Of a stretch of 64,000 bases of DNA, positions 1,502 to 62,851 are shown in pieces. Below the pieces are notes generated by a model that ran no database searches, had not been told where the DNA came from, and saw only the letters and a list, made by a program, of their open reading frames with translations. The position numbers were made by a program, and so were the translations under genes. The stretch lies in the IMG/VR virus record IMGVR_UViG_2844359394_000002. One strand, written 5' to 3'. Positions within the stretch are counted from its first letter, which is position 1, and the number at the start of each line of letters is the position of its first letter. Origin of the DNA: an uncultured virus (IMG/VR IMGVR_UViG_2844359394_000002) (taxonomy: Duplodnaviria; Heunggongvirae; Uroviricota; Caudoviricetes).

Positions 1502-3307
1502 TTAACATTCCGGTTTATAGAAACATGGCAGAAGAGCCTTCTTGTCGCAGTCCTTACCATGAAGAATACATTCAAACAAGTGTTTCAGGTAATTCTGAGG
1601 GTCTATGCCGTTCAACTTACAGCTTTCTATCAGAGAGAAGGTGAATGCAGAGTTTTCTGCCGCATCCTCACTGCCAACGTTCATACAGTTCTTGAGCAGC
1701 AGCTTTACAGGTTTCATCCTTTGCTCACAGAGGTTGTTCGAGATTTCTGCTGAACCGTCCTTGAGGATATTTCTCAAGGATTTCCACTGGTTTATCGTAT
1801 AGTTCACGGCCTTTCTCATCAGTTCGTTAGCCATAATCTTCGCATCCTGCATCATAATGACCACCTTATGATGGATACGTTCAAGAATCGGTCCTGTTAG
1901 CTTAAGCCTTCTTTCCTTAATCTGCTCACCGCTGAGTTTCATCATACGGAACAGGTCTTCATTTCTGAACATCTCACCGATAGGATCTATTATGTCCATC
2001 GCTGTTCTGTCTGAAGGCAGGGCATCAACCCACAACCTTCTACAATGCGTCCAGCATCCTATATGAAGCACCTTTGAGTCGTCTCCGTCAAACATCCTGT
2101 AAACCGTATATCCGTCAGTGGATATGGTTCCCATAAAATATTCCAGGAATGATTTTGCCGCATCGGACGACCTGCTGCCGTTATTATAGTGATAATAGAC
2201 CATCTTAATATGCTTGGCAAAGAAAGCCCATAAGTACTTTCTCCTGTAAGCCTTACCTTCCTTTGTTTCCACTCCAACAAGCTCAGTAGTCTCATCAACC
2301 ATAAGGTAATTAGCTCTCTGTACAAACTCCTTGAAGACATCTTCCATGAACTCCCTTAGTTTGGCGATTCCGTTATGGATATAGCTGTTCAGCGTGGTAT
2401 TGCTTATGTGGATACCCTCTCTTGCAAGCAGTCTTATCTGTCTGTTCTCAGGCATGCTGAAGTCATATTTCAGACAAAGCAGACGGGCAAGCAGTTCAGG
2501 AGAGAAGATACCTCCAAGGTTTTTCAGCGGATGTTCCATGGTGCTTGTGAAAGTGCCGTCCGCAAGCTTTACCCTTGCCACCTTGTAAACATGCTCCACG
2601 TTATAAGCCCTTACATGTTCTATGACCCTGTATTCCCACACATCAGGCATACCGTTGCGGTTCATAAACCGTCCCCCTTCTGGAAGCGTGTAATACTCGT
2701 CCACTTCATGTACTACCACCTTGTCAACTTTCAATTTTGTTTTCCCGGCACGTGGTGCGGTTTCCTTTCTCCTTGAAGGTTTGCTGTTCTGGGCAGGTAT
2801 GTTGCCGGAAGAGGTATTGCTGCCGGTTTCGTTATCATCGGTCTTATTATTATCATCCTTCCTGTCAGAACCGTCATACTCGGATTGTTCCAGAGCGGAC
2901 TTGTCGAGATTACGGTTGTTCAACAGCCTTCTTTGCTCGGAAGTACGGCCGAAACGGTGTTTCCTGCTGTCCTCAAGCTGAAGTCTGAGATTGGAGATCT
3001 CGTTTGCCAGCATCCTGTTCACCTCATCCTTTGCTTCAAGCTGCTTTCTCATAAGTTCCATTTCTTTCCTGTAATGTTCAACCGTGGTTGACTGCTTTTC
3101 GATGGTATCTTTGAGATCATTGATGGTATCTATCAGATTTTTAGAGTTCTCCCTGTTGGATTCTTCAATAGACTCAAGCCTCGCAATCAATTCTTTATTC
3201 TGTTTGCGAAGACCTGCCTTTTCCTCATTCGCCAGACCCAGCTGGCAGCAAAGTAACTCGTATGCTCTTTCATCAATCATGATATAAAGGTACGAAAAAT
3301 CAGGCAC
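1502..3307 (-). CDS. tnpC: IS66 transposase TnpC (DDE)
   Basis: N-terminal coiled coil, RFGRTSEQ, VDETT, TDGY, CWTHCRR, ISNNLCEQ, SLIESCKLNGIDP motifs. Confidence 0.93.
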   Translation of the reverse strand: MPDFSYLYIMIDERAYELLCCQLGLANEEKAGLRKQNKELIARLESIEESNRENSKNLIDTINDLKDTIEKQSTTVEHYRKEMELMRKQLEAKDEVNRMLANEISNLRLQLEDSRKHRFGRTSEQRRLLNNRNLDKSALEQSEYDGSDRKDDNNKTDDNETGSNTSSGNIPAQNSKPSRRKETAPRAGKTKLKVDKVVVHEVDEYYTLPEGGRFMNRNGMPDVWEYRVIEHVRAYNVEHVYKVARVKLADGTFTSTMEHPLKNLGGIFSPELLARLLCLKYDFSMPENRQIRLLAREGIHISNTTLNSYIHNGIAKLREFMEDVFKEFVQRANYLMVDETTELVGVETKEGKAYRRKYLWAFFAKHIKMVYYHYNNGSRSSDAAKSFLEYFMGTISTDGYTVYRMFDGDDSKVLHIGCWTHCRRLWVDALPSDRTAMDIIDPIGEMFRNEDLFRMMKLSGEQIKERRLKLTGPILERIHHKVVIMMQDAKIMANELMRKAVNYTINQWKSLRNILKDGSAEISNNLCEQRMKPVKLLLKNCMNVGSEDAAENSAFTFSLIESCKLNGIDPQNYLKHLFECILHGKDCDKKALLPCFYKPEC

Positions 3308-3368
3308 TTACGCAAACTTTTTACCGTTTATTTTTTATACTATCCTGTTGATAATCAGTATGTTAATA

Positions 3369-3713
3369 TTAGCCTTTCGGACTAACGTACATCTTGTCAA
3401 CTACAATGCTTTCCGTAAGATAAGCCATGTCCGACCACTGTATCCGGTAGCACCTGGAGACTTCATCAAATACAGGTTTCTTGAATTTGCCCATAACAGG
3501 ACGTTTTTCGTAAAGCACATAAAAACCGCGTTCGTAATGAAGTATCTTCACAACCTTTCGGTTCCGGGACATGAACATATATACATTGGACGCATCGCTC
3601 GGGTCAAGGGACATTTCTTCCCTTATACTCTCACACAGACGGAAAATGCCTTTCCGCAAATCAACATTACCGTTAAACAGGTAATAGTTAAGGTTAGCAC
3701 TCAGTCCAAGCAT
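3369..3713 (-). CDS. tnpB: IS66 accessory protein TnpB
   Basis: VDLRKGIFRL...FMSRNRKVVKILHY...GFYVLYEKR, typical of IS66 Orf2. Confidence 0.9.
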   Translation of the reverse strand: MLGLSANLNYYLFNGNVDLRKGIFRLCESIREEMSLDPSDASNVYMFMSRNRKVVKILHYERGFYVLYEKRPVMGKFKKPVFDEVSRCYRIQWSDMAYLTESIVVDKMYVSPKG

Positions 3714-3714
3714 A

Positions 3715-4089
3715 TCATCCTATCATTTTATTAAGCAACAGGCTCAAATCAAGAACGGTGGTGTTTCTCAGGAACAGTGTTGCGCCAGACGCCAGCTGTA
3801 ACTTGATCCATTTTATTGGTGGTTCACCTTCAGGATGTTTCACGTCCAACTTCACAGTTGGACTATTGCATGGTTTCCCGGTTATCTGGACTTTGGCAAC
3901 CTTGGGCTGCTCAACCTGGACTGTCTTGCCTAACTTCTCACTCCACAACTGGTGACGCTGCCAGTTCATGAACTTGTCGTAATTTACACCATAATCAGCA
4001 CAGAACTCTCGAAGATCTTTGGTCTCGCTGCATAACTGGTAGAGGTCATATACCTCCTGATAGTTTACTTTTTCTTTTGCCATAATCAT
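3715..4089 (-). CDS. tnpA: IS66 accessory protein TnpA (HTH)
   Basis: First ORF of the IS; LREFCADYGVNYDKFMNW HTH-like segment. Confidence 0.75.
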   Translation of the reverse strand: MIMAKEKVNYQEVYDLYQLCSETKDLREFCADYGVNYDKFMNWQRHQLWSEKLGKTVQVEQPKVAKVQITGKPCNSPTVKLDVKHPEGEPPIKWIKLQLASGATLFLRNTTVLDLSLLLNKMIG

Positions 4090-5644: not shown

Positions 5645-6040
5645 TTATCCTATATTACGTTCATTCTTCAACATAGCTAATTCGCCTTTCAGTTTTTGGT
5701 TCTCTTCAGTGAATAGTTGAATTGTTTTCATCTGCTCATTTATAGTCCCCTGAAGGGTTGCTATTGTATCAACTAAACGTTCCATGCGTTCAATATTTGG
5801 ATCAGGTTTGATATCTGAAATCAGCATTGGACCTTTATTGCGTAGTAACCAATCTGCTGAAATATCCGTAAATGCGTTTAATGTGAGCCTAATTACTTTA
5901 GAGGAAGGTTCTGTGTTTTTTTGAAACATAGAACCAATCACCGATTGGGTTACCCCAATTTTAATGGAAAACTGCCTGTCTGACAGCTTATAATAAGAGA
6001 TAATCTCTCTAATTTTTTCGTTTACGCTTGTTTCAGCCAT
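5645..6040 (-). CDS. Phage CI-like repressor (XRE HTH) with C-terminal coiled coil
   Basis: LSDRQFSIKIGVTQSVIG...ISADWLL HTH; divergent from the early right operon. Confidence 0.85.
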   Translation of the reverse strand: MAETSVNEKIREIISYYKLSDRQFSIKIGVTQSVIGSMFQKNTEPSSKVIRLTLNAFTDISADWLLRNKGPMLISDIKPDPNIERMERLVDTIATLQGTINEQMKTIQLFTEENQKLKGELAMLKNERNIG

Positions 6041-6060: not shown

Positions 6061-6124
6061 AACGTAAATGCGATTATTTATCAAGTTTTATGTTTTGTAA
6101 TTAACGTAAATACGTTTATATTTG
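6061..6124 (+). promoter_or_regulatory. Lysis-lysogeny switch: rightward promoter with two operators
   Basis: -33 TTTG 6094-6097, 19-bp spacer, -7 TATATTTG 6117-6124; operator AACGTA-AA-TACGTT 6103-6116 lies in the spacer; second copy AACGTA-AA-TGCGAT 6061-6074. Confidence 0.8.
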
Positions 6125-6193
6125 CATCATAAATCAATCAATCATACAAACATACAAAAAATGATTGATAAAACCAATTAAAAAATAACGATT

Positions 6194-6487
6194 ATGAGCT
6201 ACAATTTATCACAAATAATGAAGTCTGCACACCGCAATTACAAGAAGGGTGGAAAAACATTTTCAGAGTGTTTAAAATCTGCATGGAGCTTTGCAAAACT
6301 CCAAGAAAGTTTCTCACCGGAAGCAGTGAAATCAAGAACTGATAAATTTTTAGCTGAAAGACATGAAGCTATGAGCAAGACTGCCAAAGCTACACCTAGC
6401 AAGGAATATAATAACCTTAATATTCCCGCTTCCGCTTACTACAACCCAAATAGTACTCATTACGGTGCACATTACGTCGGAGATTAA
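6194..6487 (+). CDS. Early phage hypothetical protein
   Basis: YNLSQIMKSAH...FSECLKSAW motif common in small phage early proteins. Confidence 0.75.
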   Translation: MSYNLSQIMKSAHRNYKKGGKTFSECLKSAWSFAKLQESFSPEAVKSRTDKFLAERHEAMSKTAKATPSKEYNNLNIPASAYYNPNSTHYGAHYVGD

Positions 6488-6502
6488 TCAAATTATACAA
6501 CA

Positions 6503-6739
6503 ATGGATAAAAGAACCGAACTAGAAATACAGCGAGACAAATATGAAGCTGTGATTGAAGAACGAGACGCGTTGATCAGCTCTTTGAGAGGTGAAAATGA
6601 AAAACTCAAACGAGATTTAGAATCAGAACGTGGATTTTATAGAGAGAAAGTTTCCCAATGTGATGATTTGAAGAAATTTATTGAATCGCAACGAAACTTA
6701 ATGGACATAGTTTTGAAGAACAACCAAAGTATTCTCTAA
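6503..6739 (+). CDS. Coiled-coil hypothetical protein
   Basis: 78-aa ORF with heptad character. Confidence 0.65.
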   Translation: MDKRTELEIQRDKYEAVIEERDALISSLRGENEKLKRDLESERGFYREKVSQCDDLKKFIESQRNLMDIVLKNNQSIL

Positions 6740-6833
6740 CCCTCACTAAAGTCAAACCAAACCGCCGGTTATCCGGTACCCAGTCCGGTCTTTGAGCCTG
6801 CCCTTGAAGGGAGACTGGGAACAACAGAGAAGA

Positions 6834-6849
6834 GTTCTTTGACATATTG
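6834..6849 (+). promoter_or_regulatory. boxA-like antitermination site
   Basis: GTTCTTTGACATATTG resembles rrn/nut boxA; preceded by a CCCAGTC...GACTGGG stem (6779-6819). Confidence 0.55.
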
Positions 6850-7013
6850 GTAAAATGGTGTTTTGGAAGCCGACACGTGCTGAAAGGGATTACTGACGTA
6901 GGCGGGCTTCTCAACGATATAATGCTGTGGTTAATGGTCAAGCCGTATCGTTGTAAAACTAAATCAGTTAGACGTTTGTCGGCAAATCGAGGTATTTGCT
7001 TTATGTATATAAA

Positions 7014-7147
7014 GGTGATGTAGCTCAGGCAGGTTAGAGCGCTGTGTGTGGTGGATGGTTGAGAGTTCGAGTCTCTCAAGAAATACTCTTAGCTTAACGG
7101 AAGAGCACCACAAGTAGAGGTCGGCGGTTCGAATCCGCTCATCGCTT
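7014..7147 (+). ncRNA. tRNA-like element 1: double-elbow RNA, no anticodon
   Basis: Acceptor GGTGATG/CATCGCT; two D arms (7023-7040, 7092-7106); two TTCGA T arms (7061-7077, 7123-7139); central helix 7042-7051/7108-7117. Confidence 0.75.
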
Positions 7148-7173
7148 CAATGTTTAATTTAAAATTAGATTGT

Positions 7174-7380
7174 ATGGAAAAGGATATTCAGAGACGTAAC
7201 GTAATTGATGTATTACGGAGTATGGATGTTGGTGCAATAGAAGTATTTCCTATCGTTCAGAAACCGTCTGTAACTAATACATTGAATGCTCGGCTTTATA
7301 AAGAAAAAGCTGAAGGAATGGCTTGGAAAACAAAGTCAGATGTAAAAAATATGCAGTTTATAGTAACCAGAATTGCATAA
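7174..7380 (+). CDS. Small phage protein, probable DNA-binding regulator
   Basis: 68-aa ORF in the early operon. Confidence 0.65.
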   Translation: MEKDIQRRNVIDVLRSMDVGAIEVFPIVQKPSVTNTLNARLYKEKAEGMAWKTKSDVKNMQFIVTRIA

Positions 7381-7397
7381 CTACCTTGCTTGTTGAG

Positions 7398-7655
7398 ATG
7401 ATCAGAGGTGAAATGGCTGAAATATTGCTAGATAATATTCTCCGTCTGTTTTCTACAGAAACGTTTGGAAAAGATAAGTCTGCGTATTATGTGGGTGGGG
7501 AAAAGAAATTGATGAATCTTATAGAAGCGGGTAAGATTGAAAGTGATAAGCCCACTAATGTCCAAAACGGCAAGTGGCATTGTAATGCTGCTCAAGTATT
7601 ACTTCATTGCCGATGTGCGGGAAGGAAAGTTAAATCTAAAAAACGGAAGAAATGA
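7398..7655 (+). CDS. Small winged-helix/excisionase-like protein
   Basis: SAYYVGGEKKLMNLIEAGKI...NGKWHC pattern resembles Xis/MerR-type wHTH. Confidence 0.55.
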   Translation: MIRGEMAEILLDNILRLFSTETFGKDKSAYYVGGEKKLMNLIEAGKIESDKPTNVQNGKWHCNAAQVLLHCRCAGRKVKSKKRKK

Positions 7656-7843
7656 AAAAGATTAAAGTGATACAGTATGCCATGATGTTCATTGCCTTAT
7701 GGACAACACTGTATCTTATAGATAGCATTGAAGTTAGCAAGAAAGAATTTATTGCTGCTTTTGTATTGGTGACTGTCGTATCAGTGAATTATATCTGTTT
7801 TCGATACTACGAAGATAGGAAACAAAATAAGGATAGCCTGTGA
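7652..7843 (+). CDS. Small two-TM membrane protein
   Basis: Two hydrophobic segments in 63 aa; overlaps the upstream stop. Confidence 0.65.
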   Translation: MKKIKVIQYAMMFIALWTTLYLIDSIEVSKKEFIAAFVLVTVVSVNYICFRYYEDRKQNKDSL

Positions 7844-7905
7844 AGGTCTGCATTGCTTAATTTTAGTATTTGTCATGTTTATTTAGCCCGGTTCGCCGGG
7901 CATCT

Positions 7906-7976
7906 GCCGGGATAGCCCAGTTGGTTAGAGCGCATGTTTCTACATGAGGTCAGCGGTTCGAATCCGTTTCCCGGCT
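7906..7976 (+). ncRNA. tRNA-like element 2 (4-nt loop in place of the anticodon loop)
   Basis: GCCGGGA/TCCCGGC acceptor; D arm; CATGT-TTCT-ACATG; AGGTC variable loop; AGCGG-TTCGAAT-CCGTT. Confidence 0.8.
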
Positions 7977-8068
7977 CAACTCAATCAGAGTTAAGTAACC
8001 CGTGAGGGTGAAAATATATTTGCATTATATATACAATCAATGTAGCCGGAAGCGTCTGGCTACGACCT

Positions 8069-8166
8069 GAAGGAATGGCGGAATTGGTAAACGCAAGTAT
8101 GCAGATAGATTGAAGAAAGTCATACATAGGTAATCTATCATCCCGGTTCGAGTCCGGGTTCCTTCA
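8069..8166 (+). ncRNA. tRNA-like element 3 (Leu-type D arm; anticodon and variable region replaced)
   Basis: GAAGGAA/TTCCTTC acceptor; GGCGGAATTGGTAAACGC; CCCGG-TTCGAGT-CCGGG; crossed stems inside. Confidence 0.75.
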
Positions 8167-8393
8167 CAGAGAATTTTTCTTTTTATGTTTAACTAATGTT
8201 GCCAGCGAAAAGGACGCTGTAGGGTTAAAGCCCCTGTTATTTGAGTTTTAATTGTTCTATACTATTCCGGTGTGCTTTGAACGGCTATCCGGAAGCAAGA
8301 AGCTCGTGAGAGTGCTATTTAATAGTTAATGTCGTGTTTTATTTTGTGTTTGTGTTCTAGGTGAATGGTTCGTGAGAATAGTTCACTTAAAAC

Positions 8394-8460
8394 GGATGGC
8401 TGGTGTAATTGGCAGCATACGCAGATATGCGTGATGTGGGTTCGATCCCCACGCCATTCA
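8394..8460 (+). ncRNA. tRNA-like element 4 (4-nt loop in place of the anticodon loop)
   Basis: GGATGGC/GCCATTC acceptor; ACGCA-GATA-TGCGT; GTGGG-TTCGATC-CCCAC. Confidence 0.75.
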
Positions 8461-8561
8461 CCCTTCTGATCCTAATTAAATTATAGTAGTTCATGAGTTT
8501 TGTTTTGTGTTTGTGATTGGGGTGTATGGTCTGTGAAGATAGTGCACCTTTTTAATTAATC

Positions 8562-8644
8562 GGGCGGATATGTATATCGTTGGTTGAAACTGCGGTGAGG
8601 TGCACCAATATTCCGTGAGACCGGTTCGACTCCGGTTCCGTCCA
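8562..8644 (+). ncRNA. tRNA-like element 5 (acceptor and T arm only, G3.U70 pair)
   Basis: GGGCGGA/TCCGTCC-A acceptor; ACCGG-TTCGACT-CCGGT; no canonical D or anticodon arm. Confidence 0.65.
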
Positions 8645-8739: not shown

Positions 8740-8770
8740 CTGCCTGTACAATATCGTACAGGCAGTTTTT
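8740..8770 (+). terminator. Intrinsic terminator closing the ncRNA region
   Basis: CTGCCTGTAC-AATATC-GTACAGGCAG followed by TTTTT. Confidence 0.8.
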
Positions 8771-8778
8771 ACTACCTG

Positions 8779-8880
8779 AAAATGGCGTTAAAATGGCGAA
8801 GTTTCTGTTTGCTAAACTTGTCAATAACGATTACCTTTACTGATGTAATGAACTAAAAGTCAAACCATTAAATTAGAATT
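8779..8880 (+). promoter_or_regulatory. Repeated phage promoter element, copy 1
   Basis: AAAATGGCGTTAAAATGGCG, then TTTG-N20-TACCTTTA, then AAAGTCAAACCA leader. Confidence 0.8.
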
Positions 8881-9663
8881 ATGACAGCGAGAAAAAACAC
8901 TGTATCAACGGTTCAGAATGAAGAGAAGAAGAAAAATTCTATCAGACCGCTTCTAGCTTCTGAAATTGAATGTAGGGTTGGTACTATGAAACCGGACGGT
9001 TCGGGCTGCTCCTTGCTATTATACAAGGATGCTCGAGTAGACATGAGAATACTTGATGAAGTGTTCGGAGAAATGAACTGGAAACGGCACCATGATGTCG
9101 TTAATGGGAATCTATTCTGTACGTTGTCCATTTGGGATAATGAAAAGAAGGAATGGGTGAGTAAACAGGATGTTGGGACAGAATCTAGCACAGAAAAAGA
9201 GAAAGGGCAGGCTTCGGACGCCTTTAAACGTGCAGGATTTAACTGGGGAATTGGGCGTGAACTTTATACGGGTCCTTTCATTTGGATTCCACTTGAGAAA
9301 AATGAAATATATCAGAGCAAAACAGGTTCTCCTGCTCTATACACCAAATTCAGTGTAAAAGAGATTGGTTATAACGAGCAAAAGGAGATTATTTTACTTG
9401 TTATTGTGGACAATAAAAACCGCGTTCGTTTTGCTTATGGTAATACAAAGGAAAAAGTATATGCTCCCAATGTTTCTGCTTCAAACGCTTCGGGCAAAGT
9501 ATATACTGGTGTAGACCTAGATCGTGCAATTAAACAAATGACTGGTGTTAAAAGCCGCGAAGAGCTTGAGAGAGTTTGGGCTGAACATCCCGAACTTCAC
9601 AATAATAAGGAGTTCAGAAACATAACTATTGACATGCAGAAAACGTATCCTCCTAGAAATTGA
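8881..9663 (+). CDS. Sak/Rad52-like single-strand annealing protein
   Basis: LLLYKDARVDMRILDEVFG..NW and EKGQASDAFKRAGFNWGIGRELY motifs. Confidence 0.85.
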   Translation: MTARKNTVSTVQNEEKKKNSIRPLLASEIECRVGTMKPDGSGCSLLLYKDARVDMRILDEVFGEMNWKRHHDVVNGNLFCTLSIWDNEKKEWVSKQDVGTESSTEKEKGQASDAFKRAGFNWGIGRELYTGPFIWIPLEKNEIYQSKTGSPALYTKFSVKEIGYNEQKEIILLVIVDNKNRVRFAYGNTKEKVYAPNVSASNASGKVYTGVDLDRAIKQMTGVKSREELERVWAEHPELHNNKEFRNITIDMQKTYPPRN

Positions 9664-15459: not shown

Positions 15460-15637
15460 GCATATCAAACTTGAAGATATTCCTGAAGTGAAAAGAAGAA
15501 TACGGGAGCGTTTTGGTATTCCTAATCACACAACTGTTAATGGTGAAACGGATTGTTATATCCGTGAGGAAGATATGGAATTGCTTCGGGAAACGGAAAA
15601 ACGTGGCTTCATTCAAATACGTAATAAGCCCGCATGA
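15416..15637 (+). CDS. Hypothetical protein
   Basis: 73-aa ORF. Confidence 0.65.
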   Translation: MANKKQKVTIYWNTRHIKLEDIPEVKRRIRERFGIPNHTTVNGETDCYIREEDMELLRETEKRGFIQIRNKPA

Positions 15638-19146: not shown

Positions 19147-19803
19147 ATGACAGAGATTATTCAAGTCTGCCTACTTGATTTTAATAAGGGGCAGCTCACG
19201 GGATTGCCGAAAAATCCACGTTTTTTTCGTGATTACCGCTTTGAAGCGATGAAGAAAAGCATTCAGGATTCGCCAGAGATGCTTGAGCTTCGAGAACTTA
19301 TAGTTTTTCCCTACAATGATGGCAGATATATTGTTGTTTGTGGTAATTTACGTTTGCGAGCTTGCAAGGAGTTAGGTTATAAAGAACTGCCTTGTAAAAT
19401 TCTGGCACCTGATACCCCCGTTAAGAAGTTGAGGGAATATGCCACTAAAGATAATGTCAATTTTGGTGAGAATGATTTGGACGTTATGGAAAACGAGTGG
19501 AATAAGGCGGAACTCCAAGACTGGGGCATCGAATTTGCCCCGGAGAAGAAAGAGGATGAATTTAAAGAGCGCTTCGATGCCATCACGGATGATACAGCCA
19601 TTTATCCTCTCATTCCAAAGTATGACGAAAAACATGAGTTGTTTATCATCACCTCAAGTAATGAGGTAGATAGCAACTGGCTTCGTGAGAGGCTGGACAT
19701 GCAGCACATGAAGTCGTACAAAACCGGGAAAATAAGTAAATCCAATGTAATTGATATAAAAGACGTTCGCCATGCCCTGCAAAATAGTAATACCAAGTCA
19801 TAA
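19147..19803 (+). CDS. ParB-like N-terminal domain protein
   Basis: PKNPRFF...MKKSI...VVCGNLRLRACKELG. Confidence 0.75.
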   Translation: MTEIIQVCLLDFNKGQLTGLPKNPRFFRDYRFEAMKKSIQDSPEMLELRELIVFPYNDGRYIVVCGNLRLRACKELGYKELPCKILAPDTPVKKLREYATKDNVNFGENDLDVMENEWNKAELQDWGIEFAPEKKEDEFKERFDAITDDTAIYPLIPKYDEKHELFIITSSNEVDSNWLRERLDMQHMKSYKTGKISKSNVIDIKDVRHALQNSNTKS

Positions 19804-20524
19804 ACGCCATGACCGGGTGTTCGCTAAAAAGTTGGTGAACGATCCTATCATTTGCGTTGCTGAAAGTCAAGCTGACTTATATCAGCAATTTAACCCGGAA
19901 TGTGAAATTGTAACTCATCCTGACGACGTTATGGGCCTCATCCCGAAACGTAATTGGATGGCAAAGCATTTTGGAGAACTTTTCATGCTTGATGATGATG
20001 TCCATGCCTGCAAACCTATTTATGTGGAAAAAGGAGAACCTAGCCGGATAAAGGATAAAGATAAGATAACTAATATCATTCAGTCATTATTTGAGATGGC
20101 CAGTATGATGGATGTACATCTGTTTGGCTTCACCGCTCGGATATCGCCGGTAATGTATGATGAATCCGCTTTTCTTTCTCTTTCGAAAATGATAACCGGT
20201 TGCAGTTATGGAGTAATCTATAACAAAAACACTTGGTGGAATGAGGAAATACGTTTGAAGGAAGATTTTTGGATTTCTTGTTACATGAAGTACAAAGAAC
20301 GTAAGGTTTTAACCGATTTGCGGTATAATTTTGAGCAAAAGAACACTTTTGTAAACGCTGGTGGGCTTGCTTCTATAAGGAATCAGGAAGAGGAACGTAA
20401 ATCTATCCTCTTTATCAAAAAGAATTTTGGTGATAGTATTTTGCTAAAGAGTGCAACCACTAATGGGAAAGACAAAACAAAGCAGCTCGTTCAATATAAT
20501 ATATCATGCAAATTCAAATTCTAA
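19772..20524 (+). CDS. GT-A glycosyltransferase, TAGT/GREB1-like
   Basis: IVIPSHKR, FMLDDD, KEDF, FVNAGGL motifs; coupled to the ParB-like gene. Confidence 0.65.
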   Translation: MPCKIVIPSHKRHDRVFAKKLVNDPIICVAESQADLYQQFNPECEIVTHPDDVMGLIPKRNWMAKHFGELFMLDDDVHACKPIYVEKGEPSRIKDKDKITNIIQSLFEMASMMDVHLFGFTARISPVMYDESAFLSLSKMITGCSYGVIYNKNTWWNEEIRLKEDFWISCYMKYKERKVLTDLRYNFEQKNTFVNAGGLASIRNQEEERKSILFIKKNFGDSILLKSATTNGKDKTKQLVQYNISCKFKF

Positions 20525-22745: not shown

Positions 22746-23468
22746 ATGAAATATTATGCTTCAGTTAGCTTTGGAAAGGATTCCTTGGCAATGCTTTTCA
22801 TGCTAATAGATAAAGGATATCAGTTGGATGAAGTCGTTTTCTATGATACAGGTATGGAATTTCAGGCAATCTATAACACTCGTGATGCTGTTCTTCCAAT
22901 TCTTAAAAAACTTGGCATTAAATATACAGAACTGCATCCGGAGCAACCTTTTCTTTGGACAATGTTTGAAAGGCCGGTTAAGAAAAGAGGGACCAATATT
23001 ATCCATAAAAAAGGATATAGTTGGTGTGGGGGAACATGCCGGTGGGGAACGAGTGAAAAACTTCGTGCATTGAAAGCTCACACAAAAGACGGAATTGATT
23101 ATGTCGGTATTGCTGCCGATGAGACCCATCGTTTTGAAAAGGAAAAACGACCAAATCGGGTTTTACCACTTCGTGATTGGGGCATTACTGAAGCAGATGC
23201 ACTCCAGTATTGTTACACAAAAGGCTTTGTTTGGCATGAGGATGGAGTAAGGCTATATGAGCTACTTGATCGTGTGAGTTGCTGGTGTTGTGGAAATAAG
23301 AACTTGAAGGAGTTGAAGAATATGTATTTGTACCTTCCATGGTATTGGAAAAAGCTGAAAGAACTTCAGTTAAATACCGATAGGCCCTATCGTCGTAATA
23401 GTGGAGAAACCATTTTTGATTTAGAGGAAAGATTTAGACGTGAATTGTTGAAGAAAAAAACTGATTAA
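22746..23468 (+). CDS. PAPS reductase-family (PP-loop) protein
   Basis: SVSFGKDS, YDTGMEF, GIAADE, RVSCWCC. Confidence 0.85.
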   Translation: MKYYASVSFGKDSLAMLFMLIDKGYQLDEVVFYDTGMEFQAIYNTRDAVLPILKKLGIKYTELHPEQPFLWTMFERPVKKRGTNIIHKKGYSWCGGTCRWGTSEKLRALKAHTKDGIDYVGIAADETHRFEKEKRPNRVLPLRDWGITEADALQYCYTKGFVWHEDGVRLYELLDRVSCWCCGNKNLKELKNMYLYLPWYWKKLKELQLNTDRPYRRNSGETIFDLEERFRRELLKKKTD

Positions 23469-25716: not shown

Positions 25717-26274
25717 ATGAGTGAAGTAGAATTAAAGAAGTTGTTTCAAATAGAGGATATATTATCACTTCCTAATGCGATTTTTAAAATAATCTTTGAT
25801 AATGACGAAAGATTGCATCATATATATCGAGAGTTATTACAACTCAATACTCATGATCTTTCAAGAGATTGGTTTCAAGATATATATGAGGGTGAATTGG
25901 CTCAAAGAAACCAAAACAAGCAGGATTTTACTCCTAATGTAGTAGGAATACTACTATCAAGATTGACAGGGGTTTCCAAAGGGGTGATTTACGAACCTAC
26001 TGCCGGGAATGGTTCCCTTATTATTTCTAACTGGTGGCATAGAGTTAAAACTTTAGGAACTGATTTCAAACCGTCTGAACACCCCGTTGAATGCTGGGAG
26101 TTGTCTGATAGGTCTATTCCGTTACTCTTGCTTAATTTATCGATACGTGGTATTAATGCAACTGTGTATCATGGTGATGTACTTGTAAAATCAATAAAAA
26201 GTGAATATCGCTTGCTGAACGTGAAAGATATTCCATTCGATTTTTCCATTATAGAAAAGATTAGTTATGATTGA
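25717..26274 (+). CDS. N6-adenine DNA methyltransferase (HsdM-like), N-terminal half
   Basis: QDFTP and IYEPTAGNGSL (SAM-binding motif I), LNLSIRGI, HGDVL; ends before motif IV. Confidence 0.8.
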   Translation: MSEVELKKLFQIEDILSLPNAIFKIIFDNDERLHHIYRELLQLNTHDLSRDWFQDIYEGELAQRNQNKQDFTPNVVGILLSRLTGVSKGVIYEPTAGNGSLIISNWWHRVKTLGTDFKPSEHPVECWELSDRSIPLLLLNLSIRGINATVYHGDVLVKSIKSEYRLLNVKDIPFDFSIIEKISYD

Positions 26275-26860
26275 CGATAATTTTATAAAGAATCTGTACC
26301 AATACACTAGGAAAAGAATCAATTTCTTGTTTCCTGGCATTGATATTAATTACATGGATATCTCTCATTCCGTTATAGCTGACGAACGTTTTTCTATTGA
26401 AAATTGGCGGGATTTGGTTGATCGTCTGATTTACGATGAGGTTTCCTTTATAAAAAGAAACAACCGTTTTGGGGAAGCTGATTTAGCAATTAGAAATACT
26501 CCTGAAAATATTTTATTATGTAATAAATGTGGGGAGTATGTACCTGAAAGCAAATTCTATTTAAGTACGAAAATTTGTAATTCATGTTATTATATTGAAA
26601 ATCGGGAAAAAATACTGAAGAATAATAAGGCATATCGGATTCGTAACAGAGACAAATTACTTGCCCGTAGGAAAGAATTGCGAAATGCCAATATTGAACA
26701 TTATAGAGAATTGGAGAGGGCTAGTTACAAGCGTAGATATAAGGTTAATAAGGAAAAGATATTAGAGAAAAATAGAAAATATCAATTAGCTCACAAAAGT
26801 GAAATACGTGAGTATATGAAAGTGTATTATCAAAAAAATAAATCAAAATGGAAACAGTAA
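26267..26860 (+). CDS. Zinc-finger/basic-repeat protein inserted in the methyltransferase
   Basis: CNKCGE...CNSC followed by NREKI/NRDKL/NKEKI basic repeats, as in the N-termini of phage homing nucleases. Confidence 0.7.
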   Translation: MIDDNFIKNLYQYTRKRINFLFPGIDINYMDISHSVIADERFSIENWRDLVDRLIYDEVSFIKRNNRFGEADLAIRNTPENILLCNKCGEYVPESKFYLSTKICNSCYYIENREKILKNNKAYRIRNRDKLLARRKELRNANIEHYRELERASYKRRYKVNKEKILEKNRKYQLAHKSEIREYMKVYYQKNKSKWKQ

Positions 26861-27513
26861 TAGCAAATCCGCCCTTTTCCGCCAAATGGAGTGCAGATGT
26901 CTCTTTTATGGATGATGAACGATTTAGTGAAGTTGGGAAATTAGCCCCTAAATCTAAAGCTGATTATGCTTTTGTCTTGGATATAGTCCATAAACTGGAT
27001 GTAACAGGGATTGCGGCTATAGTTCTTCCTCATGGAGTTTTATTTCGTGGTGCTGCCGAAGGTGTTATTCGCAGGTTTCTTATTGAAGATAAAAACTGCA
27101 TTGATGCTGTCATTGGGCTACCGGCCAATATATTCTATGGTACTAGTATTCCTACTTGTATCTTGGTAATAAAGAAATGTCGTAAAGAAGATGAGAACAT
27201 CCTTTTTATTGATGCAAGCAAAGATTTTGAAAAGCTTAAAAACAAGAACTCTTTGAGTGATGAACAAATAGACAAGATTGTACAGACGTTCCAAGAGCGT
27301 AAGGAAATTAAGAAATACAGTCATTGTGCCACATTGCAAGAGGTTATGGCTAATGATTTTAATCTTAACATACCGAGATACATAGATGTATTTGAGGAAG
27401 AAGAACCTATTGACATTAAGGCTGTTATGGATGAAATAAAAGAGCTGGAAGCCAAACGTGCCGAATTGGATAAGGAGATTGATGTTTATTTGCGAGAATT
27501 GAAACTGATTTAA
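26848..27513 (+). CDS. N6-adenine DNA methyltransferase (HsdM-like), C-terminal half
   Basis: VIANPPFS, KADYAF, VLPHGVLFRG, IGLPANIFYGTSIP, FIDAS, NLNIPRY. Confidence 0.88.
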   Translation: METVIANPPFSAKWSADVSFMDDERFSEVGKLAPKSKADYAFVLDIVHKLDVTGIAAIVLPHGVLFRGAAEGVIRRFLIEDKNCIDAVIGLPANIFYGTSIPTCILVIKKCRKEDENILFIDASKDFEKLKNKNSLSDEQIDKIVQTFQERKEIKKYSHCATLQEVMANDFNLNIPRYIDVFEEEEPIDIKAVMDEIKELEAKRAELDKEIDVYLRELKLI

Positions 27514-27531: not shown

Positions 27532-28488
27532 ATGAAATTGGATGATGTGTATAAGGCTTGGATTTCTGTAAAGAAAAGGCAAGTCAAGACTAGTTCACTG
27601 GCATCGTACCAGCAGATATACGTGAAAAAGCTTTCTCCAATGTTAGGATGTATGGGAGTTGGGGAATTGAGCAAAAAGGTTATTGTGCCATTCATGAACG
27701 ATCTTATGGATAATTCGGGGTTATCTGTGAAGTACTGCAATGATATTCTGATAGTTCTAAAAATGCTAATTCGGTTTGCTGACGAAGAGTTAGACCTTGA
27801 GGTACATAACATTACATGGAAGATGGTATGGCCAAGTAAAAATAAGATAGCTGCTCAAAAGCTGGAACGTTATTCTCCTGCTGAATATAAGAAAATCGTC
27901 GATTATGTGTTAGCGAATCCATCTCCACGTAATCTTGGAATTTTGCTAACGATATGTTCCGGTATGCGTATAGGGGAAGTATGTGCCTTACAATGGAAGG
28001 ATATAGATTTAGATAAAAAGACTATTCATATTTGTAAAACCTTAGAACGCATATATATGCCAGGCGAGGATGGTACATTTAATAAAGCAAAAACCCATAT
28101 TGAGATTGGGCCCCCGAAAACTTCAAATTCTGATAGGTATATTCCTATCTTAAAAAACATTTTCCCTTTGGTGAAGAAGTTTTCTGCTGTGTGTAATCCC
28201 GATTATTATGTGTGTACTTGTGGTGAGCAATATACAGAACCTCGGACCTTGCGGAATTATTATGAGAAATTTATTCTTGAAAAGGTAAAACTAGACCACT
28301 GTATCAAGTATCATGGATTAAGGCACACTTTTGCCACGACTCTTATAGAGAATAAAATTGATGTCAAAACTGTATCTACTATTCTTGGTCATTCAGATGT
28401 AGGTACCACTTTGAATATTTATGTTCATCCATCAGAGGAAGCTAAAACCGATGCTGTTAATTCAGGATTAAGGAGAATTTTTAAATAG
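27532..28488 (+). CDS. Tyrosine recombinase/integrase
   Basis: SGMRIGEVCAL, PKT, HGLRHTFAT, LGHS, NIYVH catalytic set. Confidence 0.92.
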   Translation: MKLDDVYKAWISVKKRQVKTSSLASYQQIYVKKLSPMLGCMGVGELSKKVIVPFMNDLMDNSGLSVKYCNDILIVLKMLIRFADEELDLEVHNITWKMVWPSKNKIAAQKLERYSPAEYKKIVDYVLANPSPRNLGILLTICSGMRIGEVCALQWKDIDLDKKTIHICKTLERIYMPGEDGTFNKAKTHIEIGPPKTSNSDRYIPILKNIFPLVKKFSAVCNPDYYVCTCGEQYTEPRTLRNYYEKFILEKVKLDHCIKYHGLRHTFATTLIENKIDVKTVSTILGHSDVGTTLNIYVHPSEEAKTDAVNSGLRRIFK

Positions 28489-59237: not shown

Positions 59238-60026
59238 ATGACGAATGAACAAAGCGCAACGCTGCTTCGCTTGAATAAACAGGCACAAGTGGCAGCACTG
59301 AACGCCGTGGGCTTCTCGGATGTCACCGAGAATTCCCGCGCATCTGAATTTGGACAACGTATCAAGTGGGCCGCCGGTCTGCTTGATCTGCATCTTGCCT
59401 GTAATCGTATTTCGGATAACTCCAAGGCATACTTTACTGCTGCCGAATGGAACTCCCTTACGCTCGCTAATAAGCAACTGTATATCAAACGCGGGCTTCG
59501 TATCCGTGCCCATGGACACTCCTTCGTAATCGCCGCCCAGGAGTGCTATAATGCCGATATGACTACTACCTTCTATTGGGGCGGTCAGGGTAAAGCCATA
59601 GACGGCCTGAACCAAAAAGGACTGGGTGCCATGTACGGCTGCTTCACGGGTGAGGAAGATACCGACCTGATTATCACTGGCCTGAAAGACCAAAACAATA
59701 GCGGTGTAATCGGTGCGCCGGCTGCCGAAGCCGCCCGTGCATACCGTGCCTACACTTTGGAAAGTGACGGTATCGAGGATGAATCCAACTGGTTCCTTCC
59801 TTCATCTGGCCAAATGCTTCTGATGTACCGCTACCGGGATAAAATCAATGAGATGATGCGTACCTTTTGGAGTAGTGACAGTATGCTGATGACTGATAAA
59901 TACTACTGGTCATCAACAATTTGGGATACTAACTCCGCCTGGGCGTTCGAACTGAATACCGGGCGTATTACGAATCAAAACAAAAATTCAGCCCTTCTTC
60001 ATGTGAGAGCTGTTGCTTCCGAATAG
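59238..60026 (+). CDS. C-type-lectin-fold protein, paralog of the DGR target without a VR
   Basis: Collinear with 60052..60861 (LLRLNKQ, FTAxEWNS, GAPAAE, YWSST, VRAV) but no nucleotide match to TR. Confidence 0.8.
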   Translation: MTNEQSATLLRLNKQAQVAALNAVGFSDVTENSRASEFGQRIKWAAGLLDLHLACNRISDNSKAYFTAAEWNSLTLANKQLYIKRGLRIRAHGHSFVIAAQECYNADMTTTFYWGGQGKAIDGLNQKGLGAMYGCFTGEEDTDLIITGLKDQNNSGVIGAPAAEAARAYRAYTLESDGIEDESNWFLPSSGQMLLMYRYRDKINEMMRTFWSSDSMLMTDKYYWSSTIWDTNSAWAFELNTGRITNQNKNSALLHVRAVASE

Positions 60027-60051
60027 TATTAACTTAATATTATACAATAAA

Positions 60052-60861
60052 ATGGATAAAAATATCGCCAACGCCATGCTTCTGCGCTTGAATAAACAAG
60101 ACCAGATAGAAGCCTTAAAATCAATAGGTTTTACAACCGTGAATGAAAACACCCCCGCAAGCGACATCGCCAAATATATGCAATGGTCAGGTACGCTTCT
60201 TGACCTTTCTTTGGCTACGCTCCGGATTGAAGACGGTGAACAAGTCTTTTTCACGGCTTCCGAATGGAACTCCATGAGCGCAAATAACCGCTCCAAGTAT
60301 ATCCGTATCGGCATCCGACTTCGCGCCGAATGCCACCAGTTCATTATCGCCAAAAGCGACTGCGTTGACGCAGGCGGCAATAAAACGTTCAAATGGGGTG
60401 GCTACGGAACTGACCTACGCGGCCTGAAAAACTACGGCAGTGGTAACCAAGGACTCTATGATACCTTCGACGGCAAGGAAAATACCGATGTTATAATAGA
60501 AACCCTTGCAGGCGTCAAGGACACCCAGGGAACTGTCGGCGCCCCTGCCGCCGAAGTTGCCAGAGCCTATAAAGCCTGTACGCTTGAATCTGACGGAATT
60601 GAAGATACAACCGTGTGGAACCTGCCCGCATTGGGTGAACTTATGCTTATGGCCAAGTATAAAACCGAAATCAATGAGCTCATAACTTCTATGTTTGGCA
60701 ATCAAAATATATTTACAAACGACTGGTATTGGTCTAGTACCGAATATGACGCTTCCAGCAGTTGGTACGTGGGCTTCAACTACGGCACCGTCTACACGTA
60801 CTACCGCCAGGGCGCGAGCCGGGTTCGTCCCCTCGCCGCAATAAACACTTTATCTCTTTAA
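60052..60861 (+). CDS. DGR target protein (C-type lectin fold, putative receptor-binding)
   Basis: WNLPALGEL, YWSSTE, VRP motifs; VR at the 3' end. Confidence 0.92.
   Translation: MDKNIANAMLLRLNKQDQIEALKSIGFTTVNENTPASDIAKYMQWSGTLLDLSLATLRIEDGEQVFFTASEWNSMSANNRSKYIRIGIRLRAECHQFIIAKSDCVDAGGNKTFKWGGYGTDLRGLKNYGSGNQGLYDTFDGKENTDVIIETLAGVKDTQGTVGAPAAEVARAYKACTLESDGIEDTTVWNLPALGELMLMAKYKTEINELITSMFGNQNIFTNDWYWSSTEYDASSSWYVGFNYGTVYTYYRQGASRVRPLAAINTLSL
60751..60841 (+). repeat. DGR variable repeat (VR)
   Basis: 91-bp ungapped match to 61508-61598 with 11 mismatches, all opposite TR adenines. Confidence 0.97.
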
Positions 60862-61007: not shown

Positions 61008-61415
61008 ATGGCACTTACACAAGACCTTCCTATATCAAATTCGATGTATAAGCTTCTGAATCTTATCATTGATGCCCGGCAACAATTCCCCAAGGCGTTC
61101 CGGTATGAATTTGGTACGGAGTTGATGATGCTTGCCGTCCATTGTTGCGAATATATCCGTTATGCAAATACAGATATGAACCTTGAGCACCGTGCAGATT
61201 ATCTGATGAAGTTTTTGTGTGAGTTTGATGCATTGAAATTACTGCTAAGAGTGTGTGAAGAACGACATTTGACCAGCCTGACTCAAACAGCCGAAATCTG
61301 TCTGCTTGCAGAGAGCATCGGTAAGCAAAGTACCGGCTGGTACAAAAAAACGGTTGCAGATCTCCAACGGCAAAAAGCTAACGGATCGCAACAAGTCGCA
61401 AAGCCGGAGTCATAA
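61008..61415 (+). CDS. avd: DGR accessory variability determinant (four-helix bundle)
   Basis: FPKAFRYEFGTEL...IGKQSTGW; lies between VR and TR; -7 box TAACTTTG at 60961-60968. Confidence 0.88.
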   Translation: MALTQDLPISNSMYKLLNLIIDARQQFPKAFRYEFGTELMMLAVHCCEYIRYANTDMNLEHRADYLMKFLCEFDALKLLLRVCEERHLTSLTQTAEICLLAESIGKQSTGWYKKTVADLQRQKANGSQQVAKPES

Positions 61416-61429
61416 TCGCCAAGGGGATT

Positions 61430-62851
61430 ATGAGTGAGCAATTAGAATTATTTATTGGGCATCCCCCCGGTGATGAGCCGGGAAAGACTAAGATAGCGGA
61501 TGCAACGGCTTCCAGCAGTTGGAACGTGAACTTCAACAACGGCAACGTCAACACGAACAACCGCCAGAACGCGAACCGGGTTCGTCCCCTCGCCGCAACA
61601 GGTAATATAATCTATGACATACTTCTTAGCAGTATTTTCGAAGCATCCGAAGATTGTGCCAGGCAGAAAAGAACGAGTACGGATTGTGTTGAGTTCTATA
61701 ATGATTATCAGTCCGCATTGGTGCGGCTATGGTATTCTATTATTTACGGTGAATATGTACCGGACTTTTCAAAAGTATTCATACGGACTTACCCGGTATA
61801 TCGGGAGGTTTTTGCCGCCGCTTTCATTGATCGTGTTGTCCATCACTGGATCGCTCTTCGTATCGAGCCGATCTTAGAGGAACGCTTCCGGGAACAAGGA
61901 AACGTCTCCAAGAACTGCCGGAAAGGTGAGGGATGCTTGTCTGCCGTGCACTATCTGAATAACATGATAGTCGAGGTCAGTGAGAATTATACTGCCGATG
62001 CGTACATTTTCAAAGATGACCTGTTCAGTTTCTTCATGTCTATCTCGAAATCGTTGGTATGGGAAATGCTGAACATATTCGTAAGGGACAATTATAAAGG
62101 CGATGATATTGAATGTTTGCTTTACCTTCTAGCCGTTACTATCTTTCATTGTCCACAAAATAAGTGTATCAGACGCTCTCCCGTCTCCATGTGGGACAAA
62201 CTTCCCAGTAATAAAAGTCTGTTTCATAATGACCCTGACAGGGGAGTGGCTATCGGGAACCTGCCGTCGCAACTCATAGCCAACTTTCTGGCGTCTGTAT
62301 ATGATTATTTCGTGATGGAAATACTGGGATTCATGTATTATGTACGCTTTGTTGATGACTTTTGTATCGTAGTGAAATCACCGGAAGAAATATTGTCCAA
62401 AGTCCATCTTCTTGATGGTTTCCTGAAAGAACAACTCCTTTTACGGTTGCATCCACGCAAACTGTATCTTCAGCATTATAAAAAAGGAGTCTTGTTTGTA
62501 GGGGCGTTCATTTTGCCTGGTAGAATTTATGTATCTGACAGGGTGGTTGGTAACACATATAACGCTGTCAGGAAATTTAATAGAATAGCTGAAAATGGAT
62601 TTGCAGAAGCGTATGTTGAGAAGTTTGTGAGTACGATGAACTCTTATTATGGCCTGATGAAACACTTTGCAACGTACAATATCCGCCGTAGAATTGCAGC
62701 GATGTTACTTCCTGAATGGTGGGAATATGTTTATATCGAAGGACATTTTGAAAAGTTTGTATTGAAGAATAAATATAACCATAGAAAACAACTAATTAAA
62801 CATATCAAAAGACATGGATCAAAAAAATATCTTACCGCGTGGGATTGCTAA
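61430..62851 (+). CDS. DGR reverse transcriptase
   Basis: REVFAAAFIDRVVHH, GVAIGNLPSQLIANF (DGR SQ signature), YVRFVDDF. Confidence 0.96.
   Translation: MSEQLELFIGHPPGDEPGKTKIADATASSSWNVNFNNGNVNTNNRQNANRVRPLAATGNIIYDILLSSIFEASEDCARQKRTSTDCVEFYNDYQSALVRLWYSIIYGEYVPDFSKVFIRTYPVYREVFAAAFIDRVVHHWIALRIEPILEERFREQGNVSKNCRKGEGCLSAVHYLNNMIVEVSENYTADAYIFKDDLFSFFMSISKSLVWEMLNIFVRDNYKGDDIECLLYLLAVTIFHCPQNKCIRRSPVSMWDKLPSNKSLFHNDPDRGVAIGNLPSQLIANFLASVYDYFVMEILGFMYYVRFVDDFCIVVKSPEEILSKVHLLDGFLKEQLLLRLHPRKLYLQHYKKGVLFVGAFILPGRIYVSDRVVGNTYNAVRKFNRIAENGFAEAYVEKFVSTMNSYYGLMKHFATYNIRRRIAAMLLPEWWEYVYIEGHFEKFVLKNKYNHRKQLIKHIKRHGSKKYLTAWDC
61508..61598 (+). repeat. DGR template repeat (TR)
   Basis: Ten in-frame AAC codons; matches the VR. 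Confidence 0.97.

Follow-up and report, generated by a model that had tools for sequence, protein, structure and literature searches.

We analyzed a stretch of 64,000 nucleotides from an uncultured virus of the Caudoviricetes (IMG/VR record IMGVR_UViG_2844359394_000002), hereafter the window, whose early region carries five tRNA-like elements without an anticodon, which we call E1 to E5. The window reads as a lambdoid-type prophage, and its host would be of the Bacteroides type, because copies of the Rfam Bacteroides-1 motif occur in related genomes and because promoter boxes of the form TAnnTTTG, which we take to be the -7 box consensus, are present. The repressor-like gene is followed by a rightward early region of small open reading frames (ORFs) and then by the five elements. 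Downstream of these lie, in order, the genes for Erf, an exonuclease, SSB, NinB, a helicase, NinG and the replication proteins, and beyond them DNA-modification genes, an integrase gene, AbiH, the terminase and structural genes, and a diversity-generating retroelement.

The initial annotation, made from the letters alone, had reported five elements, each with a 7-bp acceptor stem and a 5-bp T stem with a TTCGA loop, four of them with D arms and none with a 7-nt anticodon loop; all of this can be read directly in the sequence (Table 1). The acceptor stems are GGTGATG/CATCGCT in E1, GCCGGGA/TCCCGGC in E2, GAAGGAA/TTCCTTC in E3, GGATGGC/GCCATTC in E4 and GGGCGGA/TCCGTCC in E5. The T loops read TTCGAAT in E1 and E2, TTCGAGT in E3, TTCGATC in E4 and TTCGACT in E5, and E5 alone has no D stem. 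The details given for the anticodon position also stand, namely the short loops of E2 and E4, the crossed stems of E3 (GTATG/CATAC and GATAGATT/AATCTATC), the second tRNA body of E1, whose interior holds a second T arm and D arm, and the unrelated interior of E5.

Table 1. Location of the tRNA-like elements and of neighboring features in the window; positions count from its first letter.
Feature	Position	Strand	Remarks
IS66 element	1502-4089		
Repressor-like gene	5645-6040	-	
-7 box TATATTTG	6117-6124	+	Early rightward promoter, divergent from the repressor-like gene; matches the TAnnTTTG pattern
Weak A+U-rich hairpin	6981-7000	+	E1 leader, 13 nt before E1; dG -7.1, z about 0; exception to the leader-hairpin rule
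E1, 'double tRNA'	7014-7147	+	Outer tRNA body; Rfam tRNA 36.6 bits with a 72-nt insert
Three small conserved ORFs	7150-7843	+	phrog_21219, phrog_18744 and phrog_26666, no known function; between E1 and E2
Leader hairpin GCCCGG-TTCG-CCGGGC	7886-7901	+	4 nt before E2; dG -12.7, tail 4
E2	7906-7976	+	tRNA-Met(CAT)-derived body; 4-nt TTCT loop replaces the 7-nt anticodon loop; Rfam 54.7 bits
Second -7 box TATATTTG	8015-8022	+	Upstream of the E3 unit; TAnnTTTG pattern
Leader hairpin GTAGCCGG..CTGGCTAC	8042-8063	+	5 nt before E3; kept with E3 whatever its insert
E3	8069-8166	+	tRNA-Leu-derived body; anticodon arm replaced by a 39-nt pseudoknot-like insert; Rfam 40.8 bits
GU-rich 23-mer	8334-8356	+	In the E4 leader; identical to a host multicopy element
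Two-tier leader hairpin, GTGA tetraloop	8360-8387	+	6 nt before E4
E4	8394-8460	+	tRNA body; 4-nt GATA loop; Rfam 39.1 bits
Second GU-rich element	8495-8517	+	In the E5 leader; 3 mismatches to the first
Second GTGA-tetraloop leader hairpin	8521-8548	+	Followed by TTTTTAATTAATC, then E5
E5	8562-8644	+	Acceptor stem with G3:U70 and T arm; no D stem; unrelated interior
Strong intrinsic terminator	8740-8775	+	10-bp stem and T run; closes the early unit
Integrase gene	27532-28488		

When compared with the Rfam tRNA model (RF00005, cut-off 29 bits), E1 to E4 score above the cut-off and E5 below it; the best score of E5 is 17.1 bits, with the tRNA-Sec model (cut-off 47). The Rfam alignments put the 72-nt insertion of E1, the 39-nt insertion of E3 and the shortened loops of E2 and E4 exactly at the anticodon arm, and no Rfam family besides the generic tRNA covers the elements. 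As the initial annotation had expected of tRNA finders, ARAGORN returned an undetermined call, and over the whole window it called E2 alone ('tRNA-???', with a 2-nt anticodon). No genuine tRNA accompanies the elements here. We then scanned both strands of the 64 kb for a 5-bp T stem, a T-loop-like heptamer and a 7/7 acceptor. Among the 15 rows obtained, a TTCGA loop together with a G+C-rich T stem and a 7/7 acceptor occurs at these five sites only, the remaining rows being A+T-rich chance matches and one alternative register of E4. The five-element array is confirmed as real and far from chance.

An Erf protein search gave 76 loci in IMG/VR. Among 61 genomes searched at the DNA level, the locus is present in G001 (identical), G015 and G004; G065 was added later. 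Every one of the 61 loci with at least 3 kb of sequence upstream of Erf has at least three elements within those 3 kb, arranged in 15 architectures, and five more distant phage records also hold element clusters. The array is real and widespread, and in this phage group it is both universal and modular. Among 50,697 phage records we found no annotated relative, only three short tRNA-like matches. From these loci, 78 distinct element sequences were extracted, three of which are scan artifacts; none of the 75 real ones has a canonical anticodon loop, and the features of a tRNA proper that we looked for (a 7-nt anticodon loop with U33, a 3-nt anticodon and a purine at position 37) were not found. 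ARAGORN made 16 calls on the 78 sequences: 11 as 'tRNA-???', one as an irregular Lys, and four of the E5 type, which were read as Cys or Tyr and have a G32/C37 loop and no D stem.

At the anticodon position the relatives carry either loops of 3-5 nt or exchangeable structured inserts of 25-90 nt, and the tRNA body is kept. The slot of E2 holds TTCT, TTCC, TTTT, AAT, TTT, TCT or larger inserts (elements of 93, 139, 158 and 160 nt), and that of E1 either the 130-133-nt 'double tRNA' or a minimal form of 67-71 nt. E3 measures 97, 105/106, 112/113 or 148 nt depending on its insert, E4 has eight distinct variants with a GATA or GGTA loop, and E5 is present in every architecture of the near relatives. 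This module slot, the universal modular array, and the fusion of E4 and E5 to copies of a host GU-rich element described below were not foreseen by the initial annotation.

The fold is under selection. In an alignment of 16 distinct E1-minimal and E2 sequences, 97.3% of cells pair and nine pairs change on both sides, and none of 500 shuffles reaches the observed pairing or covariation score; the acceptor covariation in this alignment is largely the difference between the E1 and E2 paralogues. Slid controls gave 32-56% here, and 32-58% over this alignment and that of the long E1 together. For the latter, a pattern of the E1 inner part matched at least 94 IMG/VR stretches, which give 24 distinct sequences; the deletion variant L118 was dropped from these, and with the window and L074 added, the alignment has 25. 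In it 96.7% of cells pair and ten pairs change on both sides (six of seven in the outer acceptor, three of five in the outer T stem and one in the long stem), a result that 0 of 500 shuffles reach. Both tRNA halves are always present and paired. These data support selection on the acceptor, T and D shape and not on decoding, as the initial annotation had proposed, and its view that random decay is unlikely also held, given the array in all 61 relatives and the covarying stems; the elements are not decay products.

The anticodon stem of E1 is lengthened to about 11 bp, with a G.A opposition found in 25 of 25 sequences, and is capped by what reads as a circularly permuted second tRNA elbow: a variable-loop-like linker, a T arm, a closed 4-bp hairpin mimicking an acceptor, a further linker and a D arm with GG, which leads back into the helix. 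The few changes in this inner module (A-U to G-U, U-G to C-G) are compatible with a permuted elbow and are no proof of the fold. The module is almost invariant; about 33 of its columns are fixed by the search pattern, and about 35 columns beyond the pattern are not. E1 is better conserved than the neighboring genes, with 90.7-97.0% identity between phages whose flanking ORFs share 70.8-92.5%. We consider the E1 'double tRNA', found in at least 94 viral contigs and showing strong outer-stem covariation around a nearly invariant core, a well-supported new structured RNA.

All five elements lie between ORFs on the transcribed strand, in one early unit that runs from the -7 box at 6117 to the terminator at 8740. 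A pattern scan gave a further TAnnTTTG box at 6708, within an ORF. The three small ORFs between E1 and E2 were found in 12 of 12 representative loci. RNA libraries also contain the unit. The data are assembled contigs in all four runs, and contigs cannot show RNA ends; they begin at 6144 in run X1 and at 6130 in run X9. Run X1 gave one contig over 6144-8806 with a depth of 24.8, compared with 363 on the repressor side and 8.7 downstream, and we argue from this uneven depth that the source is RNA, not contaminating DNA. In run X9 the contig 3' of the second -7 box has a depth of 18 versus 5.7 upstream, which is a weak hint only.

We next folded the 50 nt upstream of each element with RNAfold, for 25 leaders from the window and its relatives. 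Twenty of them have a dG of -10 kcal/mol or lower and a hairpin that ends 3-7 nt before position +1. The 25 leaders are not independent, because they fall into about nine hairpin classes. Of 20 host tRNA genes, one reaches this dG (mean -6.7), and their tails scatter over 2-25 nt. The leaders of the four E3 variants (E3A, E3B, E3C and E3D) reach -14.4 to -16.5 with tails of 4-5 nt, and in the alignment of the GTGA hairpin (A5, 20 distinct sequences) pairing holds in 94.1% of cells, with changes on both sides in 8 of 11 pairs. The spacing, read directly from the sequence, is too short to accommodate a promoter, so that each hairpin is transcribed together with its element.

The leaders of E4 and E5 consist of a GU-rich element shared with the host and a homologue of its terminator hairpin. 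Four genomes of the host genus (G001, G004, G006 and G020) have three chromosomal copies of the GU-rich 23-mer each, and 36 of the 41 genomes of the genus contain a match, almost always at 100% identity, to a 29-nt version that we took from the relative L079. On the host chromosome the Rfam Bacteroides-1 motif and a TAGTTTTG box immediately precede the element, whose 3' end is formed by a GTGA-tetraloop hairpin and a U tract (for example L097 738-905, 972-1142, G006); the element is probably a conserved small RNA without a name. The phage GTGA hairpin shares the two-tier stem and the tetraloop of this terminator. In phages the GU-rich module stands before E4, both E5 types, E3, the long E1 and others; some relatives retain its -7 box intact, and the window has an altered one. 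Inside the phage, no target of the element was found at up to three mismatches. A phage copy is mentioned in a study of FopS small RNAs in B. thetaiotaomicron (PMC11697453). We do not call the GU-rich element FopS, because the 5' end of FopS-10 in the primer table of that paper differs from it.

The tRNA bodies resemble host genes. E2 shares about 84% identity with host tRNA-Met(CAT) genes, and its loop lacks about three nucleotides; among 40 host tRNAs sampled, E3 (with four tRNA-Leu genes) and four further families have their best match in tRNA-Leu, and one family of a distant phage in tRNA-Ser. Two further ideas about the elements were set aside. BLAST-level searches of 61 and 41 genomes for inserts that mimic host RNAs matched only the tRNA-Met-like body, T-arm pieces and the GU-rich element. 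A kissing loop of E5 was considered for an apical self-complementarity of 8-10 nt in several variants; palindromes at least as long turn up in 4-15% of shuffles, which is not significant, and variant L064 has lost the palindrome.

An anticodon-less tRNA-like RNA of 120 nt that belongs to the host itself lies on its chromosome just 3' of rsgA and is conserved in two species (L101 986-1108 on the minus strand, equal to G001:C1:1764385-1764507; also G004:C1:3818953-3819072). This RNA has a G3:U70 acceptor, normal D and T arms, and a hairpin with a long linker in place of the anticodon arm, and it scores 50 bits with the Rfam tRNA model and 29.9 bits with the tmRNA model (cut-off 47). In addition, a second prophage of G004 holds a 110-nt tRNA-Leu-like RNA with a 49-nt insert (L102 1438-1547, minus strand; Rfam tRNA 33.6 bits), which adjoins a copy of the GU-rich element.

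The elements keep the features that tRNA maturation enzymes recognize, that is, the stack of acceptor and T arm, the elbow of T loop and D loop, and G+1, and they have lost the anticodon loop. Among the roles that the initial annotation had listed, a signal for RNase P and RNase Z fits the context best, with a hairpin 3-7 nt upstream and a position between mRNAs and small-RNA-like modules within one unit. We therefore propose, tentatively and with a likelihood that we put a little short of even, that the early RNA is a tRNA-punctuated polycistronic transcript, in which cuts at the tRNA-likes yield mRNAs and small RNAs with hairpin ends, and the tRNA bodies also serve as scaffolds. Our model suggests that host RNase P would cut at the 5' ends of the elements, and RNase Z or exonucleases would trim the 3' ends. 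After a cut at +1, the upstream RNA would end in a hairpin and a tail of 3-7 nt, the form of a terminated bacterial small RNA, so that protected ends could be made without halting transcription of the remaining unit. The expected products would be a first mRNA (6130-7013), E1, a second mRNA (7148-7905) ending in its leader hairpin, E2, a short leader RNA with E3, and two GU-rich small RNAs with E4 and E5. As scaffolds, the tRNA bodies would carry exchangeable structured modules at the anticodon position, and some of the freed RNAs probably act in trans, since the E1 module is strongly conserved.

Several observations weigh against this model. A plain processing signal has no need of elaborate conserved inserts, of the recurrent G3:U70 of the E5 type or of the ACCA that four E5-type variants encode, and processing alone leaves the near-invariant core of E1 unexplained; it is because processing alone is incomplete that we added a scaffold role and action in trans. 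The E1 of the window and the minimal E1 form have no strong leader hairpin, and the U-rich tails after several hairpins could terminate transcription instead. The breaks of the RNA contigs disagree between studies: run X10 stops at 7910 and resumes at 7971, leaving E2 uncovered over 7911-7970, and X9 covers up to 7959; X9 itself breaks within E1 at 7119/7123, and the depth falls across E1 in that run only.

Three rival explanations were weighed. The freed tRNA-likes might be decoys or sponges that titrate host factors recognizing the tRNA body or its 3' end (defense nucleases, nucleotidyl- or pyrophosphoryl-transferase toxins and tRNA-binding sensors are the targets envisaged), with processing as a mere route of biogenesis; without an anticodon they would leave translation undisturbed. 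The early position of the array directly after the immunity region, the removal of the anticodon in every family, and a module content that varies strongly between phages with 99-100% identical Erf, which would be typical of conflict loci, all speak for decoys, and a nearly invariant E1 core within covarying outer stems suggests a specific partner. That invariance is, however, partly set by the search pattern. Moreover, a tRNA-targeting system was neither sought nor found in the host, none of the genes beside the elements encodes a partner protein (the neighboring small ORFs belong to no known family), and neither the leader hairpin nor the link to the host GU-rich element is explained by titration. 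We regard the decoy reading as rather unlikely.

A role as chargeable, non-decoding tRNAs seems to us quite improbable. The synthetases for Leu, Ser and Ala do not read the anticodon, and elements with acceptors of the tRNA-Leu, tRNA-Ser or Ala type (G3:U70) could for that reason be aminoacylated and serve as amino-acid donors, sinks or tmRNA-like ligands. Besides the five families nearest to host tRNA-Leu and the one nearest to tRNA-Ser, G3:U70 with A73 is present in six of nine E5-type variants, counted by eye, the encoded ACCA occurs in four distinct E5-type sequences, and one E5-type element matches the tmRNA model weakly, with 13.5 bits. Yet G3:U70 is not kept in L060 and L205, the window has an E5 that ends in ACTA and shows no transferase dependent on aminoacyl-tRNA, and E1 and E2 derive from tRNA-Met, whose synthetase requires the CAU anticodon. 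Decoys and chargeable RNAs could both coexist with processing. Finally, the elements might be decaying tRNA genes or remnants of integration sites without an RNA function, whose halves persist as recombination homology for module exchange. Integrases are well known to cross over in anticodon loops, tRNA halves do flank the variable inserts, and the architectures are mosaic; the prophage integrase, however, lies about 20 kb away, and the compensatory changes in the stems, the invariable pairing of both halves, a conservation of E1 that exceeds that of protein genes and the retention of at least three elements in every relative make this reading very improbable, and we disfavor it.

Returning to the punctuation model, its nearest parallels lie outside bacteria. 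In the tRNA-punctuation model of organelle transcripts, tRNA-likes set the 5' and 3' ends of mRNAs through RNase P and RNase Z. The herpesvirus MHV68 makes its TMERs from Pol III units that feed the miRNA pathway, and the stable RNAs of phage T4 sit among genuine tRNAs; in both, viral tRNA-likes are connected with further small RNAs, and host tRNA enzymes carry out their maturation, whereas the elements described here have no genuine tRNA beside them and use the anticodon arm as a module slot. In their working, the elements would be most like t-elements and mascRNA. The t-elements of plant mitochondria, as far as the accessible text of PMC1920247 describes them, are non-decoding tRNA-like structures between or behind genes. 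A non-decoding tRNA-like fold at the boundary of another RNA of the same strand is found here as well; t-elements are organellar, while we see a phage early unit in a bacterium with presumed cleavage, arrays of three to seven elements, a dedicated leader hairpin for each and large conserved inserts. In MALAT1-mascRNA and MEN-beta-menRNA, RNase P gives the upstream RNA its 3' end and releases a small tRNA-like, according to the accessible parts of PMC8457004 and PMC11693755. Those tRNA-likes have an irregular anticodon arm and follow directly on a protective 3' structure, comparable to the hairpin in 20 of our 25 leaders; they belong, however, to vertebrate nuclear long non-coding RNAs, the structure is a triple helix, not a hairpin, each transcript has one element, and there is no common descent.

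Membership in the established bacterial classes fails on defining features. Genuine phage tRNAs share the cloverleaf core with E1 to E4, but their 7-nt anticodon loop is present in no distinct sequence examined. The inner module of E1 has the permuted order of YrlA/Y RNA (RF02553), with T arm, closed acceptor-like hairpin and D arm on top of a long helix; the helix of E1 leads into a second, complete tRNA body where YrlA has free ends, RF02553 (cut-off 69) scores the window at 21.5 bits and L079 at 24.8 bits, and E1 was rejected as a Ro-associated RNA. No TROVE/Rsr gene was found among the ORFs of the window or in the four host-genus genomes searched. E5-type elements recall tmRNA (RF00023) in the G3:U70 acceptor and the T arm, in a D-loop-like stretch that has no D stem beside it and, for some relatives, in the encoded ACCA, but they lack a tag and any reading frame, and a separate tmRNA exists in the host. 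ARAGORN found no tmRNA, and the RF00023 scores do not exceed 13.5 bits (cut-off 47).

The initial annotation had not recognized a described system. For phages this holds in the literature that we searched by full text, where no description of such arrays was found; since analogues exist outside bacteria, the elements are less far from known kinds than had been assumed. A catalogue of candidate structured RNAs of phages mentions tRNA-like candidates (PMC10690425); three of our contig names are absent from the searchable part of its supplements, and the elements may be listed unnamed in the remaining files. In the accessible text of a 2026 review (PMC13434031), 'anticodon-less' refers to tRNAs trimmed by a defense nuclease and not to phage genes.

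Some further features of the prophage deserve mention. A repeat of about 107 nt at 8777-8885, before the Erf operon, breaks the RNA contigs and recurs three more times, near 15635, 20534 and 23466 (positions converted from G001), with 78-93% identity. In two cases (8881 and 20636) it ends at or a few bases before the ATG of the next gene, and two copies match a 38-nt core with three mismatches or fewer; it looks like a repeated promoter or leader of middle operons. Non-coding sequence is kept in relatives at 6740-7013, upstream of E1, and at 8167-8330, between E3 and the first GU-rich element. Further small hairpins with a GTGA tetraloop occur in such conserved stretches (CCCGTGAGGG at about 7991-8000 and CTCGTGAGAG near 8300 are examples), and the sole match of these stretches is to the DUF2693 RNA model, with 14.5 bits. 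DNA-modification genes at 19772-20524, 22746-23468 and 25717-27513 encode a TET-associated glycosyltransferase, a PAPS-reductase-like protein and an N6-methylase split in two ORFs. At the far end of the prophage, the diversity-generating retroelement (a bAvd-like protein and a reverse transcriptase, 61008-62851) stands behind two Lcl_C-domain genes (59238-60861).

A broader version of the model, which we consider possible though doubtful, is that temperate phages of Bacteroides-type hosts possess a modular toolkit of anticodon-less tRNA 'chassis'. Host maturation would cut the early RNA into mimics of a conserved host small RNA, and the chassis would display exchangeable effector modules, such as the double elbow of E1, that bind host or phage factors. 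The rsgA-linked RNA of the host hints that the principle extends to bacteria. Synthetic biologists have devised the same design for multiplexed guide RNAs; if our model is correct, tRNA punctuation would be a natural phage strategy, unreported in the papers that we searched, by which several small RNAs and mRNAs are made from one early transcript with tRNA shapes and not terminators. It would be the first prokaryotic counterpart of biogenesis of the mascRNA or TMER type and would define a new class of phage regulatory or counter-defense RNAs. To our knowledge, the bacteria concerned lack Hfq and ProQ, and the model would give them a route of small-RNA biogenesis and stability. Prophages of abundant gut bacteria would also be tied, as mimics, to a small RNA of their hosts whose conservation in the genus is perfect, and the exchangeable modules mark a hypervariable early locus that may hold RNA-based counter-defense.

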